Assembly: GCA_951406725.2 (NCBI GenBank)
Contig: OX597821.1
Location: 108,872,001 to 108,936,000 of the forward strand
DNA length: 64,000 nucleotides
Source: Octopus vulgaris
Lineage: Eukaryota
Reading direction: 5' to 3'
Shown: one piece after another, positions 21,268-63,780 of the stretch
Position numbering within the stretch: position 1 is the stretch's first letter
Layout of the letters: the number at the start of each line of letters is the position of its first letter
The notes under the pieces: generated by a model
What the model was told of the DNA's origin: nothing
The model's input: the letters and a program-made list of their open reading frames with translations, nothing else
The model's database searches: none
Translations under genes and position numbers: made by a program

Positions 21268-21459
21268 ATATATGAATATATATATATAACATAAGGGGGA
21301 TCAGCCATCTGAATGTGGCTAGGGACAGGGCGGGGTAGTGGGGGTGTTACTGATGCATTTAGCCCCAGGCGATCGTCGACGTCACCAGAAGGGCTGACAC
21401 CATCTCGGTGTCCTTGCCAGCCTGCAAAGGAGATCAGCCTCCCGAAGATACGGATACTA

Positions 21460-21502
21460 CATACGGACCGGTTTCGAGGTTATTGCCTCTTGTCAACGCA
21501 TG
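21460..21502 (-). ncRNA. Type I hammerhead ribozyme (unit 1), U3-A8 core variant
   Basis: Minus strand reads CAUGCG-UUGACAA-GAGG(CAAUAA)CCUC-GAAAC-CG-GUC/CGUAUG. Stem I has 6 bp, stem II 4 bp, and stem III is the palindrome ACCGGU. Confidence 0.85.
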
Positions 21503-21817
21503 GCAAGTACCGTTCTTCGTTGAGGGACTCCCTCTACAGGCTGGATATATAGATTTTCACAGTAACCACAGTCACTGGCGTAGAAAATCCGTTCGAAAAC
21601 AATAATAAATCTCTGAGCGAGATATAAACAGTAACTGCTCTATAACATAAGGGGGATCAGCCATCTGAATGTGGCTAGGGACAGGGCGGGGTAGTGGGGG
21701 TGTTACTGATGCATTTAGCCCCAGGCGATCGTCGACGTCACCAGAAGGGCTGACACCATCTCGGTAGTCTTGCCAGCCTGCAAAGGGAGATCAGCCTCCC
21801 CGAAGATACGGATACTA

Positions 21818-21860
21818 CATACGGACCGGTTTCGAGGTTATTGCCTCTTGTCAACGCATG
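21818..21860 (-). ncRNA. Type I hammerhead ribozyme (unit 2)
   Basis: Motif identical to unit 1. Confidence 0.85.
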
Positions 21861-22177
21861 GCAAGTACCGTTCTTCGTTGAGGGATTCCCTCTACAGGCT
21901 GGATATATAGGGATTTTCACAGTAACCACAGTCACTGGCGTAGAAAATCCGTTCGAAAACAATAATAAATCTCTGAGCGAGATATAAACAGTAACTGCTC
22001 TATAACATAAGGGGGATCAGCCATCTGAATGTGGCTAGGGACAGGGCGGGGTAGTGGGGGTGTTACTGATGCATTTAGCCCCAGGCGATCGTCGACGTCA
22101 CCAGAAGGGCTGACACCATCTCGGTGTCCTTGCCAGCCTGCAAAGGGAGATCAGCCTCTCCGAAGATACGGATACTA

Positions 22178-22220
22178 CATACGGACCGGTTTCGAGGTTA
22201 TTGCCTCTTGTCAACGCATG
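22178..22220 (-). ncRNA. Type I hammerhead ribozyme (unit 3)
   Basis: Motif identical to unit 1. Confidence 0.85.
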
Positions 22221-22746
22221 GCAAGTACCGTTCTTCGTTGAGGGACTCCTCTACAGGCTGGATATATAGGGATTTTCACAGTAACCACAGTCACTGGCGT
22301 AGAAAATCCGTTCGAAAACAATAATAAATCTCTGAGCGAGATATAAACAGTAACTGCTCTATAACATAAGGGGGATCAGCCATCTGAATGTGGCTAGGGA
22401 CAGGGCGGGGTAGTGGGGGTGTTACTGATGCATTTAGCCCCAGGCGATCGTCGACGTCACCAGAAGGGCTGACACCATCTCGGTGTCCTTGCCAGCCTGC
22501 AAAGGGAGATCAGCCTCCCCGAAGATACGGATACTACATACGGACGCCCCCACTACCCCGCCCTGTCCCTAGCCACATTCAGATGGCTGATCCCCCTTAT
22601 GTTATAGAGCAGTTACTGTTTATATCTCGCTCAGAGATTTATTATTGTTTTCGAACGGATTTTCTACGCCAGTGACTGTGGTTACTGTGAAAATCCCTAT
22701 ATATCCAGCCTGTAGAGGGAGTCCCTCAACGAAGAACGGTACTTGC

Positions 22747-59939: not shown

Positions 59940-60514
59940 CGAATGCCATATTTGTCATGTGAATTTGGTTGAACGATATTTCGGCATCTAGTGTGCCTTC
60001 CACAGATTCAAATATCACATGTCAATCCACTTCATTTCTTTTTTTTTCTGTCAGGATTGCACAGGACTGAGGTAACTCCTCCAGAAATTATAGAGAAATA
60101 AATACAAGAATACCATAATCATCTTGTGACATTGGTTGAATGATATTTTAGCAACTAGCGTGTCTTCCACAGGTTCAAAAATTACATGTCAGTCTACTTA
60201 ATTTTTTTTTTTTTTTTTTTTTTTTGTTAAGGTTATATAGGACTGAGGTAACTCCTCCAGAAATCATAGAGAAATAGATAATGGAGTGCCATAGTTATCC
60301 TGTAAAATTGGTTGAACGATATTTTGGCATCTAACGTGCCTTCCACAGGTTCGAAAATCACATGTCAATCAACTTCTTTTTTATTTTTCTTTTGTTAAGA
60401 TCTTATAGGACTGAGGTAACTCCTCCAGAATTTCACTGGATAACTATGGCACTCTTCTATTTATTTCTCTATAACTTCTGGAAGAGTTATCTCAGTCCTG
60501 TATAATCTTAGCAA
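59940..60514 (-). mobile_element. Third retrozyme-like array (~3 diverged units of ~167-176 bp plus inverted arm at 60438-60514)
   Basis: ggactgaggtaactcctccagaa and ttggttgaa..ttccacag each recur three times. The terminal ~77 bp is the reverse complement of the unit. Confidence 0.65.
59969..60011 (-). ncRNA. Hammerhead-like motif with CUGUGGA core (decayed copies at 60136-60178 and 60312-60354)
   Basis: Minus strand reads UUGAAU-CUGUGGA-A-GGCA(CACUAGA)UGCC-GAAA-UA-UC/GUUCAA, with an outer CAUGUGA/UCACAUG extension of stem I. Confidence 0.5.
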
Positions 60515-60699
60515 CAACAACAACAACAACAACGATGATAATAATAATAATAATAATGATAATAATAATAATAATAATAATAATAATAATAATAATAATA
60601 ATGATAATAATAACAATAACAATAATAATAATAATGATAATAATAATAATAATAATAATAATAATAATAATAATAATAATAATAATAATAATAATAATA

Positions 60700-61231
60700 A
60701 TGCCCTGATGCAGTACCAGGCAGTGGCTCTCCTGGCTTCTGATCTTAACTAATTGGAACTGTTATCATGTGCATTGTTTTGTCTTGGTATAAAAGATGGG
60801 CTACAGTAAATATTCTGCTCAATACCACAGATTTGCTTGTCAGTTGTTTGACCTTAACTAGTTGACCATGTACCTTTGCGGCTGAAGATGTGTGCATTTT
60901 TGCTCACGAGCAGAAGTATTGGGGGCGCATCATAGCCGAGTGTGGATAGGAATTCTTGGAGGTTTGGATAATTCACCTTTGGGAACATGAGTGGTTCGTT
61001 CAACATCCTTAATCCTTATTCAGCAACGTTTTGAGCGGAATGCTCTACTCGACCAGAAGAAAATTCAAACTGGGCCCCACCTGCAAGATCATGCGCTCTT
61101 TATCTTGATATGAGATCACCATGTCGCGCACATATGGTTGTGATGCATGTGCTTAGTGTACCCTTATCAGACGAGAAGTCATGATGGGCATACTGGGCTT
61201 CGTATATTTTACCCCAGTGTCTCTCTCACTC
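60700..61231 (+). mobile_element. Family D copy
   Basis: atgccctgatgcagtacc...ctcactc, flanked by (TAA)n. Confidence 0.75.
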
Positions 61232-62779
61232 AATAATAAAAATAATAATAATCCCTTATACTAAAGGCACAAGACTTGAAATTTTGGGTGGTGGAGCCAG
61301 TCGATTACATCGACCCCAGTATGCAAAAGTTACTTAATTTATCGACCCTCGAAAGGATGAGAGACAAAGTCAACATCGGCGGAATTTGAACTCACGAAAT
61401 GCCGCTAAGTATTTCGTTCCGCATGCTAAGGATTCTGCCAGCTCACCCCCCTTAGTTACAATAATAAGAACAATAACAACAACAACATTGGTGGCAATAA
61501 CAACAATGTCGATATTGGAGAGAGAGAGAAAAAGGAATGGTATAGCAAAACGGCGGAACAAATGCGACAACAAATAAGAGCAAATTAAGCAACAACAACC
61601 TCAACAAGAAGAAGAACAATGCCAAATCATTTCACAAATAAAACACCAAAAAGTATTTTAAAAAAAACAAAACCAACAGCAACAATCACAACAACATTAG
61701 CGATTATGACAGCAAGAGAATATAAGGGCATGGCAACAGTAACGACATGAAAAATAACAAGAAATACCTCTCTGAAACCATTAGCAGCACTCAAGAGAAG
61801 AAAAATATACAGATTGAAGAATCAAAATTCACCACCACCCAACTAGAGAGTCGGAGACAAAGAGTGGCATTTTGAACGAAACACGTATGTGGTCACATAC
61901 ACAGACACACACACACACACACACACGCATGCGCAAACAAACAAACATATACACCTATACACACAAGTTCTTGCAATGCATACATGCGTAGATATATGTA
62001 TATATAAAACCATATATATATATATATATATATATATATATATATATATATATATATATATATATATATATGTATATATATATATATGTATATATATTGT
62101 ATTCATGTATATACACACATACATACATACATACATGCATACATATATATATATATATATATATATATATATATATATATATATATGTATATATATTATA
62201 AATGGATGTATGGATATAGATATATACAAACAGAACATCAACATTGGCGTGCCAATGACGGCGAAGTCGCTTTTCTTCTGATATCCTGATAACTTTTTTG
62301 CACACACATGCACGCACACACACACATACACACACTCACATACGAACACACACATTCATTAACAAATATCCTTTAACATATACACAGTAATTCACATATA
62401 TATATGCATAACCGATAACTCACTGTCCCTGCTTTTCCATATCTGTCTTTCTCTGTCACTCACTCTCTCTCTCTCTTTCTCTATCCATCTATCTATTTCT
62501 CTATACGCAGCTATACAGATATACAGAGATAGAGGTGAAGATACATACATACATACATACATACATACATACATACATACATACATACATACATACATAC
62601 ATACATATATACATACATATACATATATATACATATATATAAACATATAGTCGTAAAAGAATTATTGATAACGAACATAACTTACGCACCGATACAAAGC
62701 GAATGAAGGCAGATAACCCTTATTAATCCCCTATTATCTATCTAAAAGTAAATATAACACCTTCAAAAGTAATTACGCT

Positions 62780-63493
62780 ATGAATACTAGTAAAAATATT
62801 TGGTTAATAATTCCTTACGGGAGACAAATTAAATCTAATCTCCCACTGCTGTTTCGTCAAGCTATTGCTAGGAATTTTCCAAACAATTCTAGATATTACT
62901 CTATAATCAATTCACATAAGGTTAGGATAGGTTTTTCAAACACAAAAAATCTCTTGCAAATTATCTCTTCTCATAATAACAAACTGTTAAATATTAATAC
63001 ATTTACTAATACTAACATTAATTTAGCTAATACCATCCAACCCTCTAGAAATATTAATAACAAGGTTATTGTATCTGAAGTCAATTCCAATAGAATTAAG
63101 TTTATGTCAAGTAACTCTAAGATTAAAAATTCTATATACCAGTGTATAATCAGTATTCGTAATAAAGTACGATTTTACATTGGAAGCACATCGTTAGAGT
63201 TATCTAAAATAATTTCTATCCATTACTCAACATTTAGGGATAGAAATAAACGGAATAGTACCGGTCTCAGCAAACTGATTTGGGATTTAAAAGACCACAA
63301 TGAACAATTTCATTTAGAATGGTTGATCCTCTCAATTTCGATACCATCTGACAAAGGCAAGAAATTCTGTCTTTTCTGCAATTCTGAGCTATTTTTCATT
63401 ATTTTTTCTAAAAATACTCTAGTAAACACGGTTATAGAGCAAGCATACAGATGTAAGCATTGGCAAAAACATACATTTAGTGCATATAAGTAA
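62780..63493 (+). CDS. Penelope-like element C-terminus with GIY-YIG endonuclease (5'-truncated)
   Basis: IYQC...FYIGST, T.LSK.IW.LK and C..C..E...N...E...C.H motifs, typical of PLE GIY-YIG ends. Confidence 0.8.
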   Translation: MNTSKNIWLIIPYGRQIKSNLPLLFRQAIARNFPNNSRYYSIINSHKVRIGFSNTKNLLQIISSHNNKLLNINTFTNTNINLANTIQPSRNINNKVIVSEVNSNRIKFMSSNSKIKNSIYQCIISIRNKVRFYIGSTSLELSKIISIHYSTFRDRNKRNSTGLSKLIWDLKDHNEQFHLEWLILSISIPSDKGKKFCLFCNSELFFIIFSKNTLVNTVIEQAYRCKHWQKHTFSAYK

Positions 63494-63694
63494 TCTCTAT
63501 CATTATATATAATTTAAACTTTAAATTCCTTTATATTTAACATTCACTATTAATATCCCTACTCTTTCTGTTAGCTACTTATGACGTTATAACATATAAC
63601 GTTTTTTTAAACAATATTAATAGCGTTCTGTCTATCGCTATATAAATCCATCATTTTTTGCTAAAATGTCTTATTGACGAGTTTCGTTTTTTTC

Positions 63695-63780
63695 ACTTTC
63701 CTGAGGAGAAGATTGCATTGTTTATACCATTTATTCTTTTGAATAGTATCAGTGGAATTTTCGAAACATGTGTCGAAAGT
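63695..63780 (+). ncRNA. Hammerhead ribozyme in a Penelope pseudo-LTR; predicted cleavage after 63774
   Basis: ACUUUC-CUGAGGA-GAAGAUU...AAUUUUC-GAAAC-AUGU-GUC/GAAAGU, ~200 nt downstream of the GIY-YIG stop codon. Confidence 0.8.

Follow-up and report, generated by a model that had tools for sequence, protein, structure and literature searches.

ORF-less hammerhead repeats with Penelope-type insertion ends in a 64-kb stretch of the Octopus vulgaris genome

Two of three short tandem arrays in a 64-kb stretch of Octopus vulgaris DNA (the window, the whole of the sequence analysed here) are best explained as divergent members of a single lineage of repeats that carry a hammerhead, encode no protein and have units of 350–360 nt (non-LTR retrozymes). 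Their insertion ends are of the type made by Penelope-like elements (PLEs), and a PLE RT/GIY-YIG protein probably inserted them in trans, a reading to which we give a probability of roughly two in three (0.68). Published support for PLEs as the source of the enzyme behind animal retrozymes comes from co-occurrence, from ribozymes in common and from pLTR homology. A tail specific to PLEs, lying between two fixed ends of a ribozyme repeat that has no ORF, would add mechanistic evidence. Such an insertion-end signature on a repeat of this kind appears to be new, in that it was not found in the accessible parts of the two proposals linking retrozymes to PLEs. The end anatomy also predicts reverse transcription starts near monomer positions 180 and 223 and a required hairpin, predictions to which the existing in vitro PLE assay is suited, and two-site ends with a tail would give an easy genome-wide criterion by which unclassified tandem repeats could be assigned to PLE helpers.

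Three arrays and their hammerheads

The arrays and fold-backs were found by masked self-BLAST, a generic repeat finder having been swamped by microsatellites (Table 1). Each of the three arrays consists of a partial tandem to which a 5'-truncated copy is joined head to head in inverted orientation, the common architecture that the original prediction had described. Its further statement that they are unrelated in sequence did not hold: arrays 1 and 2 align colinearly with a local score of 68, against 23.1±3.7 for shuffles (0 of 300 reach it), and 212 of 384 columns are identical. Judged by this alignment, array 2 is a decayed relative of array 1, and what had been counted as three families in 64 kb comes down to two lineages. 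Besides these two arrays, no member of the family was found in the window.

Table 1. Positions of the arrays, their parts and the PLE-related remnants, numbered from the first nucleotide of the window
Feature	Position	Strand	Description
Array 1, whole	21285-23006		360-nt unit x3.5, 98% match, then inverted arm of 1.28 units
Array 1, main tandem	21285..22545	-	3.5 copies of 360-nt unit; GC 49.7%; ribozyme strand minus
Array 1, inverted arm	22546..23006	+	1.28 units, head to head with main tandem; outer end at monomer 222-224
Array 1, predicted type I hammerhead core	21466..21496	-	U3-A8 variant; stem I 6 bp, stem II 4 bp, palindromic stem III
Array 1, identical hammerhead copies	21824-21854, 22184-22214, 22753-22783	-, -, +	
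Array 1, tail	22966..23006	+	One-sided extension of 39-44 nt; predicted hairpin common to array 2
Array 1, target-site duplication, left	21273..21287	+	15 nt, TA-rich; overlaps element ends by 2-3 nt
Array 1, target-site duplication, right	23005..23019	+	15 nt; (TA)n microsatellite adjoins
Array 2, main tandem	32789..33297	-	~1.5 copies of 352-nt unit; GC 38.6%; homologous to array 1
Array 2, inverted arm	33312..33421	+	~110 nt; ends at short site, ~50 nt before long end
Array 2, decayed type I hammerhead	33009..33041	-	Core and stem I damaged; visible by alignment to array 1 only
Array 2, target-site duplication	32777..32788 (left), 33422-33433 (right)	+ (left)	12 nt
Array 3, whole	~59940-60510		167-177-nt unit x2.7, arm ~70 nt
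Array 3, main tandem	59941..60433	-	Copies 81-87% identical; GC 35.9% (167-nt unit)
Array 3, inverted arm	60441..60510	+	Ends at unit's internal A-tract, continues into (CAA)n/(AAT)n
Array 3, minimal hammerhead-like motif	59975..60005	-	Extra nucleotide before stem II; passes in 1/3 copies
PLE reverse transcriptase fragment	37938..39296	-	452 codons open; ends before thumb and endonuclease
C-terminal PLE fragment	62717..63493	+	RT-less; degenerate GIY-YIG domain
Type I hammerhead, canonical core	63701..63774	+	Long stem II; downstream of GIY-YIG ORF, same strand
Fold-back remnant	27264..27436	.	One-mismatch hammerhead remnant from 27380(+)

A hammerhead antisense to the direct units had been expected in each array. 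This stands for array 1, which carries four intact motifs, three on the minus strand in consecutive direct units and one on the plus strand in the arm; the single motif of array 2 is decayed and fails both motif scans, and that of array 3 passes in only one of three copies. A scan limited to canonical cores misses the U3-A8 core of array 1; eight shuffles of the window gave a single intact motif, and its stem III was not palindromic. Rfam returned no hammerhead among the 150 of 259 matches listed, which were mostly microsatellite-driven miRNA matches below the gathering score, and the motifs were therefore sought with custom scans. Array 1 is a non-coding tandem of the 150–400-nt class with GC below 50%, hammerheads in at least two consecutive units and a target duplication above 4 bp, and as such passes the sequence tests for a non-LTR retrozyme; arrays 2 and 3 share the unit length and the GC content below 50% but fail the test for hammerheads in at least two consecutive units. 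In contigs from public runs, all seven listed variants inside the array 1 hammerhead keep its fold. They comprise U3>C with A8>G (18/19% in run X3, 29/31% in X8, 27/6% in X1 and 10/0% in X7), one at N7, three in loop II and a G.U>A-U change in stem I; the covariation lends indirect support to the predicted self-cleavage. The inner end of the main tandem lies 3 nt beyond a predicted cleavage site. This stop could point to a linear template made by cleavage but is ambiguous, two of the three letters also fitting the arm.

Array 3 is old and, with the same layout, unrelated to the others, its similarity to arrays 1 and 2 being at chance level (216 and 290 of 300 shuffles reach the scores). Its identity as a ribozyme is doubtful on the motif itself. 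The extra nucleotide and a loop-less palindromic stem III recall the minimal hammerheads of PLEs, while the U at core position 6, present in all three copies, is absent from the PLE variants in the accessible part of PMC4209133. No target duplication was found around this array.

Insertion ends in the arrays and in public contigs

Target duplications, of 15 nt in array 1 and 12 nt in array 2 (both above 4 bp), flank two of the three arrays, and in each case a single duplication encloses the whole tandem plus arm. The target sites are AT-rich or microsatellite DNA: array 1 sits in (TA)n, and array 2 in an A-rich stretch of a decayed LINE ORF. The four outer ends fall at two homologous places, monomer 180–183 (main tandem) and 222–224 in array 1 and, mapped on array 1, 176–180 and ~225 in array 2. 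The long, tailed end is on the arm in array 1 and on the main tandem in array 2, at 32789. If ends were uniformly distributed, such a match would arise with a probability of 0.002–0.004, a post hoc figure for two insertions. The excess, at homologous places in the two units, forms a one-sided tail of 39–53 nt (39–44 nt in array 1, ~50 nt in array 2), with a predicted hairpin at the same place in both arrays; neither poly(A) nor (AAT)n was found at any of the four outer ends.

PLE insertions consist of a partial tandem, an inverted 5'-truncated copy and a 30–40-bp tail at one end (PMC8557442; PMC3846280). Bounded by two internal RT starts, this tail has been called unique to PLEs, and at AT-rich sites the PLE enzyme cleaves both strands and extends them (PMC11167929); the end anatomy of arrays 1 and 2 matches this pattern. 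Pen2a and Pen3a of Adineta vaga (PMC3846280) and PAc of Anolis (PMC11167929; overview in PMC8557442) share with arrays 1 and 2 the partial tandem, head-to-head copy, one-sided tail and target duplication, as well as an AT-rich or (TA)n target and a hammerhead upstream of the RT starts. These elements, however, are ORF-bearing or pLTR-flanked cargo, whereas arrays 1 and 2 are wholly non-coding multimers, and rotifer PLEs have a 31-bp tail and 8–10-bp duplications, both shorter than here; the longer tail of array 2 and the two longer duplications weigh against the PLE reading. Trans mobilisation by pLTRs has also been described (PMC3846280).

The long-end site recurs in contigs from public runs. 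Across 21597–21600, the summed depth increases 12- to 35-fold in all four runs (contig depth is not copy number). Loose ends whose flanks are mixed and AT-rich accumulate at 21600 (72, 78, 56 and 4 contigs), with a second pile of 28 contigs at 21602 in run X1. The interval 21597–21602 is the place in array 1 homologous to the tail's long-end site, which has support in 4/4 runs. The short-end site is known from the two insertions only, no loose-end cluster appearing at 21641–21644 among the contigs listed. No run matches the unit above 0.50 of words; none of those listed for it is on record as RNA, and X7, which may be RNA, was left out as evidence of expression. The depth step and the loose ends at 21600 may come largely from a more abundant relative that shares only 21600–21638 and then diverges, the divergence being marked by loose ends behind 21633/21638 (agreement 0.75–0.85). 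The loose letters preceding 21600 stop in the same way in each of the four runs, and the true end of this relative may therefore lie a few nucleotides further out. Elsewhere, the tail pattern gave one match in metagenome contigs (L001, 26 nt, of unrelated sequence and not interpretable) and none in viral contigs. As a caveat to the PLE reading, only two insertions are readable end to end.

Alternative origins and a proposed cycle

Could the units belong to a PLE instead of being copied by one? The unit might be the terminal repeat (pLTR) of an autonomous PLE whose own RNA, 5'-truncated and re-primed, was inserted as short arrays, with no independent parasite. Ordinary PLE insertions do show equal end anatomy, array 2 has only 1.5 units, and the far more abundant relative has the tail segment followed by other sequence. 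We nevertheless consider such an origin unlikely. The 3.5 units of array 1 have junctions away from the tail ends, monomer 225–280 beyond the tail is conserved between arrays 1 and 2, and the monomer folds far better than its own shuffles (z -5.5). Nor was PLE protein similarity found in any array with 81 homologs and a C-terminal profile, which cover one PLE lineage (the arrays hold no tRNA gene either). Local amplification of a single inserted monomer in satellite fashion, with the arm arising by fold-back repair, conversion or assembly error, would leave the layout silent on the enzyme. Li et al. 2026 propose that PLE termini are amplified locally into tandems, and the arm of array 1 mirrors the adjoining DNA, including one shared variant. 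Against this stand the one target duplication around each whole insertion and the excess of one end over the mirror of the other, at homologous positions in two arrays whose units are only 55% identical, and we regard a purely DNA-level origin as quite improbable.

Head-to-head inversions with duplications are also produced by L1-type twin priming, and target duplications of 12–15 nt fit the LINE range. The units might thus have been mobilised by the young (AAT)n-tailed element at 41791-44516 or the zf-RVT LINE at 28727-29467, young LINE copies being present in the window (1088/1103 nt identical), with the inversions due to twin priming; the arm of array 3, which ends at an A-tract next to (CAA)n/(AAT)n, would fit. 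In 27 comparisons of the arrays with LINE 3' ends and five SINE-like or other repeats, array 3 against the 3' end of the zf-RVT LINE scored 31 (23.8±2.8 for shuffles, 1/60 reaching it), and the best was array 2 against the SINE at 50718 (score 29, 0/60); both are low scores and are treated as chance. What makes LINE mobilisation very improbable is that arrays 1 and 2 have neither the 3' poly(A) or microsatellite tail of a LINE-mobilised SINE nor a 3' end in common with either of two LINE remnants (4–45 of 60 shuffles reach the scores), so that the 3' tail shared with another LINE clade, by which the original prediction could have been refuted, was not seen for them within the window. Moreover, the outer ends of each insertion are both outward-facing 3' ends and fall at two internal sites that are fixed, and the arm of array 1 overlaps main-tandem sequence, an overlap that twin priming is not known to give.

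How would insertion in trans by a PLE protein proceed? A tandem copy would be transcribed, and its hammerheads would cut the transcript by the published mechanism, probably as dimers because stem III is palindromic. By analogy with known retrozymes, monomers or multimers would then be ligated into circles, giving a putative circRNA form. Judging from the ends, the PLE protein would bind near the conserved hairpin ~180–225 nt downstream of the cut site, cut both strands of AT-rich DNA 12–15 nt apart and begin reverse transcription internally at two sites 40–50 nt apart. Two cDNAs, one longer than the unit, would be joined head to head, with the outcome of a tandem, an inverted arm, a one-sided tail and a target duplication, the end structure actually observed. 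The monomers of array 1 alternate in their differences at two shared sites, which argues against copying from a single monomeric circle. Much more tentatively, the tail hairpin (40–50 nt) might be a portable loading and start signal for PLE RT in many abundant ORF-less cephalopod RNA families, and array 1 might record a heterodimeric RNA circle on which RT started twice, rolling round 1.75 times from one of the starts. If true, this would be direct genomic evidence for rolling-circle reverse transcription by PLEs of ribozyme-made circRNAs.

Known retrozymes and the remnants in the window

Animal retrozymes have already been proposed to be non-autonomous PLEs (Cervera & de la Pena 2020, PMC7229834; Li et al. 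2026, preprint, bioRxiv 10.64898/2026.07.22.740005), so the arrays, placed among the non-LTR retrozymes, do not form the unrecognised class once suggested. In the accessible parts of PMC7229834 and the review PMC7761336, PLEs are strong candidate mobilisers of these repeats, which resemble the arrays as non-coding tandems of 150–400 nt with GC below 50%, a type I hammerhead, a weak palindromic stem III and duplications above 4 bp. CircRNA expression and cleavage are demonstrated there, whereas the arrays are known from DNA sequence alone. Those same parts report no inverted arm or tail, both of which are present in arrays 1 and 2, and the review, as far as accessible, describes repeats without a conserved motif pointing to a helper, whereas arrays 1 and 2 share a hairpin and two fixed ends that point to one. 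Octopus and cephalopods are not mentioned in PMC7229834. Li et al. 2026, in the text available, draw on co-occurrence across 35 species and on homology of pLTRs found in Xenopus, with no molluscs; their available main text contains no mention of "tail" and no insertion-end analysis, whereas the arrays provide insertion ends and showed no pLTR homology within the window. MRC1 of Chlamydomonas, one of the non-autonomous Chlamys PLEs in the accessible part of PMC8557442, differs in being green-algal, mostly without canonical hammerheads, and in its 3' similarity to a known autonomous family, none being found for the arrays in the window. The U3-A8 core is known from a PLE family (Cervera & de la Pena 2014, PMC4209133, accessible part) and is covariant in array 1 as well, whose 6-bp and 4-bp stems are canonical, in contrast to those minimal hammerheads.

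The PLE RT ORF expected in the window is present, as are the GIY-YIG ORF and its same-strand hammerhead. The RT ORF matches residues 4–464 of a 753-aa homolog at 58%. The GIY-YIG ORF has no RT, and neither the cysteines of the linker nor the conserved arginine seen in its homolog are present; Pfam gave no GIY-YIG match for it, and its relatives were found by HMMER search, a word-based search for longer ones finding none. The two ORFs lie 23 kb apart on opposite strands, come from different PLE lineages and are both broken, RT and GIY-YIG not being in one intact ORF as in an autonomous EN+ PLE; they are bystander remnants. Arrays 1–3 have no similarity to local PLE termini, a caveat to the PLE reading, all nine comparisons with the terminal region of the GIY-YIG element and the RT flanks being at chance level, and no partner PLE was found in the window or by pattern scans of metagenome and viral contigs. 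Co-location with broken ORFs of different lineages that share no sequence with the arrays thus drops out as evidence, and the idea that PLE enzymes copy ribozyme RNAs in trans is carried, for arrays 1 and 2, by the insertion ends. Hammerhead-containing fold-backs had also been expected, and one of the seven scanned holds such a remnant.

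Arrays and their hammerhead motifs

The DNA is animal, rich in microsatellites and crowded with SINE-like and LINE remnants. The original prediction described three arrays, and all three are present (table); in each, an inverted arm is joined head to head to a partial tandem. They are not three sequence-unrelated families, however, since arrays 1 and 2 are homologous and array 3 alone is unrelated to both. When opened at the predicted cleavage site, the array 1 and 2 units align colinearly (212 of 384 columns identical; score 68 versus 23.1 ± 3.7, 0 of 300 shuffles), and both have similar, highly paired predicted folds (folding z −5.5 for the array 1 monomer). 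The array 2 units, which lie in a decayed LINE ORF, are identical to each other at 145 of 158 nt.

Positions of the arrays and other features in the window
Feature	Position (strand)	Description
Array 1	21285–23006	3.5 units of 360 nt, about 99% identity, and a 1.28-unit arm
Array 2	about 32789–33421	1.5 units of 352 nt and an arm of about 110 nt
Array 3	about 59941–60510	units of 167–177 nt, 81–87% identical
Fold-back with hammerhead remnant	27264–27436	
Two other fold-backs	20843–21277; 49041–49259	weakly related (E 0.007); hammerhead found in neither
RT fragment	37938–39296 (−)	
Half hammerhead cores	37380–37700 (−); 40060–40110 (−)	one each side of the RT fragment, same strand as its coding sequence; neither forms a full motif in the scans
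GIY-YIG ORF	62717–63493 (+)	258 codons open in very AT-rich DNA; conserved residues lost
Hammerhead downstream of it	63701–63774 (+)	
(AAT)n-tailed LINE fragments	41791–44516; 16031–16703	98–99% identical; tandemly stacked in (AAT)n microsatellites
zf-RVT-bearing LINE 3′ end	28357–29467 (−)	poly(A); sits in a (GATA)n tract
Second 3′ fragment	57541–57697	likewise in (GATA)n
90-nt repeat, three copies	29680–29770; 30369–30468; 30638–30738	inverted and direct, in (TATG)n
Palindromic element	54232–54837	600 nt; duplicated stretch of about 43 nt each side (54185–54227, 54837–54879)
SINE-like element	55098–55364	internal 91-nt segment three times at 99% identity

Because no hammerhead appeared among the Rfam matches listed (150 of 259), custom type I scans were written. 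Array 1 carries four intact motifs: three in the direct units, on the minus strand, and a plus-strand one in the arm. Each combines a U3-A8 core with stems I and II of 6 and 4 bp and a stem III that is palindromic. When the window was block-shuffled eight times, no intact motif with a palindromic stem III arose, and one intact motif without it did. The sole motif of array 2 is damaged and failed both scans. In array 3 a motif passes in one of three copies, with U at core position 6 and an extra nucleotide ahead of stem II in its sequence, the former in all three copies; it was matched in 0 of 20 local shuffles. Since about 0–3 one-mismatch motifs turned up per shuffled window, its standing as a hammerhead is doubtful. 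Array 1 has the sequence features of a non-LTR retrozyme, a protein-free repeat bearing a hammerhead. The inner end of its main array lies 3 nt beyond the predicted hammerhead cut site (22543–22546). Among the seven fold-backs scanned for hammerheads, only the one at 27264–27436 retains a remnant. The fold-back at 20843–21277 directly adjoins the array 1 target site.

Insertion ends and the candidate mobiliser

Which enzyme copied these units? The informative signal lies in the insertion ends. A single target duplication encloses the whole insertion in array 1 (15 nt, at a TA-rich site) and in array 2 (12 nt, at an A-rich site); one was sought for array 3 and none was found. Read on the ribozyme strand, arrays 1 and 2 each terminate in a 3′ end on both outer sides. 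The main array of array 1 ends at monomer position 180–183 and its arm at 222–224, while in array 1 coordinates the arm of array 2 ends at 176–180 and its main array at about 225. The four ends therefore coincide with two homologous sites, a short and a long one, with the longer end on opposite sides in the two arrays and a predicted hairpin between the sites in both. If ends were uniform, the chance of such a match would be 0.002–0.004, as calculated post hoc on the two insertions.

Published accounts of insertions by Penelope-like elements (PLEs) give a partial tandem, an inverted, 5′-truncated copy and a 30–40-bp tail at a single end (PMC8557442). A purified Anolis PLE protein is reported to cut and extend both strands at AT-rich sites and to use two internal start sites, between which the tail lies; the authors regard this as a PLE-unique signature, and insertion in vitro did not require ribozyme cleavage (PMC11167929). 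PLEs have been named strong candidate mobilisers of animal retrozymes (PMC7229834), and a July 2026 preprint (10.64898/2026.07.22.740005) treats retrozymes as non-autonomous PLE derivatives, based on co-occurrence and on Xenopus terminal-repeat homology; according to a 2020 review, the animal repeats have no conserved motif naming a helper (PMC7761336). In the literature searched, which included few subscription papers and not Repbase, neither a tail and inverted-arm signature for retrozymes nor a cephalopod retrozyme was found. The ends offer a concrete, testable signature for which enzyme copies retrozymes. The proposed host-parasite relationship is probably right, at roughly two chances in three, for one lineage, that of arrays 1 and 2, whose RNA a PLE protein would have copied in trans; the ends point to it, rather than the reasons originally offered.

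Those reasons included PLE RT and GIY-YIG ORFs nearby. Both are present, and the hammerhead downstream of the latter passes the scans, but the ORFs are broken and unrelated to the arrays. The RT fragment matches RVT_1 (E 2e-8) and homologs of about 740 aa, many carrying GIY-YIG; it aligns to residues 4–464 of a 753-aa homolog and then breaks off. Among its homologs with a named source, which belong to octopuses and other molluscs, the nearest is from Octopus sinensis (67% identity), and the DNA is accordingly treated as octopus-like. The 62717 ORF aligns with the C-terminal part of RT-containing proteins from a different PLE lineage (32% to one of them, P0126) and is without RT, linker cysteines and conserved arginine; similar degenerate ORFs occur in public data (P0121–P0124). 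From the linker pattern, we take the two ORFs to be Neptune-like and Nematis-like. Arrays 1–3 have no sequence in common with either ORF region in the window, and the local ORFs are bystanders. A contemporary PLE helper for arrays 1 and 2 is plausible, because 31 Penelope-like families are reported to be recently active in one octopus species (PMC13282606, whose main text nowhere mentions ribozymes or retrozymes).

A LINE could also have supplied the machinery, though this is improbable for arrays 1 and 2. The window has a young (AAT)n-tailed LINE (copies identical at 1088 of 1103 nt; zf-RVT its only Pfam result), presumably Dong/R4 to judge from motifs. The original prediction would have been contradicted by LINE-type ends, and arrays 1 and 2 have no (AAT)n tail and no similarity to either tested LINE 3′ end. 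Array 3 may have been mobilised by this route, since its arm stops at an A-tract inside the unit that continues into (CAA)n/(AAT)n. The (GATA)n setting of the 3′ end of the zf-RVT-bearing LINE and of the second 3′ fragment suggests target specificity. The copies of the 90-nt repeat are possibly short PLE-type ends; two were scanned and had no hammerhead.

Alternatively, the unit of arrays 1 and 2 might be the terminal repeat of an autonomous PLE, acting in cis, which we consider unlikely.

Public contigs bear on the insertion ends as well. One unit was aligned to contigs of four public runs (X1, X3, X7 and X8) for variants and depth. Summed depth, which is not copy number, rises 12- to 35-fold across 21597–21600 in all four. 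Loose ends gather at the long site, at 21600 in 72, 78, 56 and 4 contigs and at 21602 in 28, with AT-rich flanks that agree poorly; the short site has no such cluster among the ends listed. A more abundant relative has 21600–21638 in common with array 1 and then diverges, and many of these loose ends may be its own and may lie a few nt further out. This much more abundant family, which has only the 40-nt tail segment (21597–21640) in common with array 1 and different sequence beyond, could be the terminus of the helper or a sister parasite. An otherwise unrelated metagenome contig (L001, 1184–1212) has a 26-nt exact match to the array 1 tail hairpin, either by chance or as a conserved motif.

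Ribozyme variants and template

The array 1 unit is present in 20 of the 24 public runs listed, from four coded organisms, with at most half of its words. All seven variants listed inside the hammerhead preserve the fold. U3>C with A8>G, which restores a canonical pair, occurs at 18 and 19% in X3 and 29 and 31% in X8, and less evenly in X1 (27 and 6%) and X7 (10 and 0%), percentages that are given for each site separately. The others affect the free position 7, loop II (three) and stem I (G·U to A-U). Within this family, the ribozyme is constrained. The U3-A8 core was first described from a PLE family, according to PMC4209133.

Because the main cDNA of array 1 covers three cleavage sites, its template was either a circle or a multimer left uncut. 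Compared with M2, monomers M1 and M3 carry differences at two sites, both in the long predicted stem; on the ribozyme strand these sites read G,G / A,A / G,G in successive monomers, and the M1-then-M2 pattern recurs in the arm. The alternation would fit a two-unit circle read 1.75 times, and also fold-back copying or conversion; a dimeric template, conversion or, speculatively, A-to-I editing might account for the variants. Several one-base gaps in array 1 look like consensus errors.
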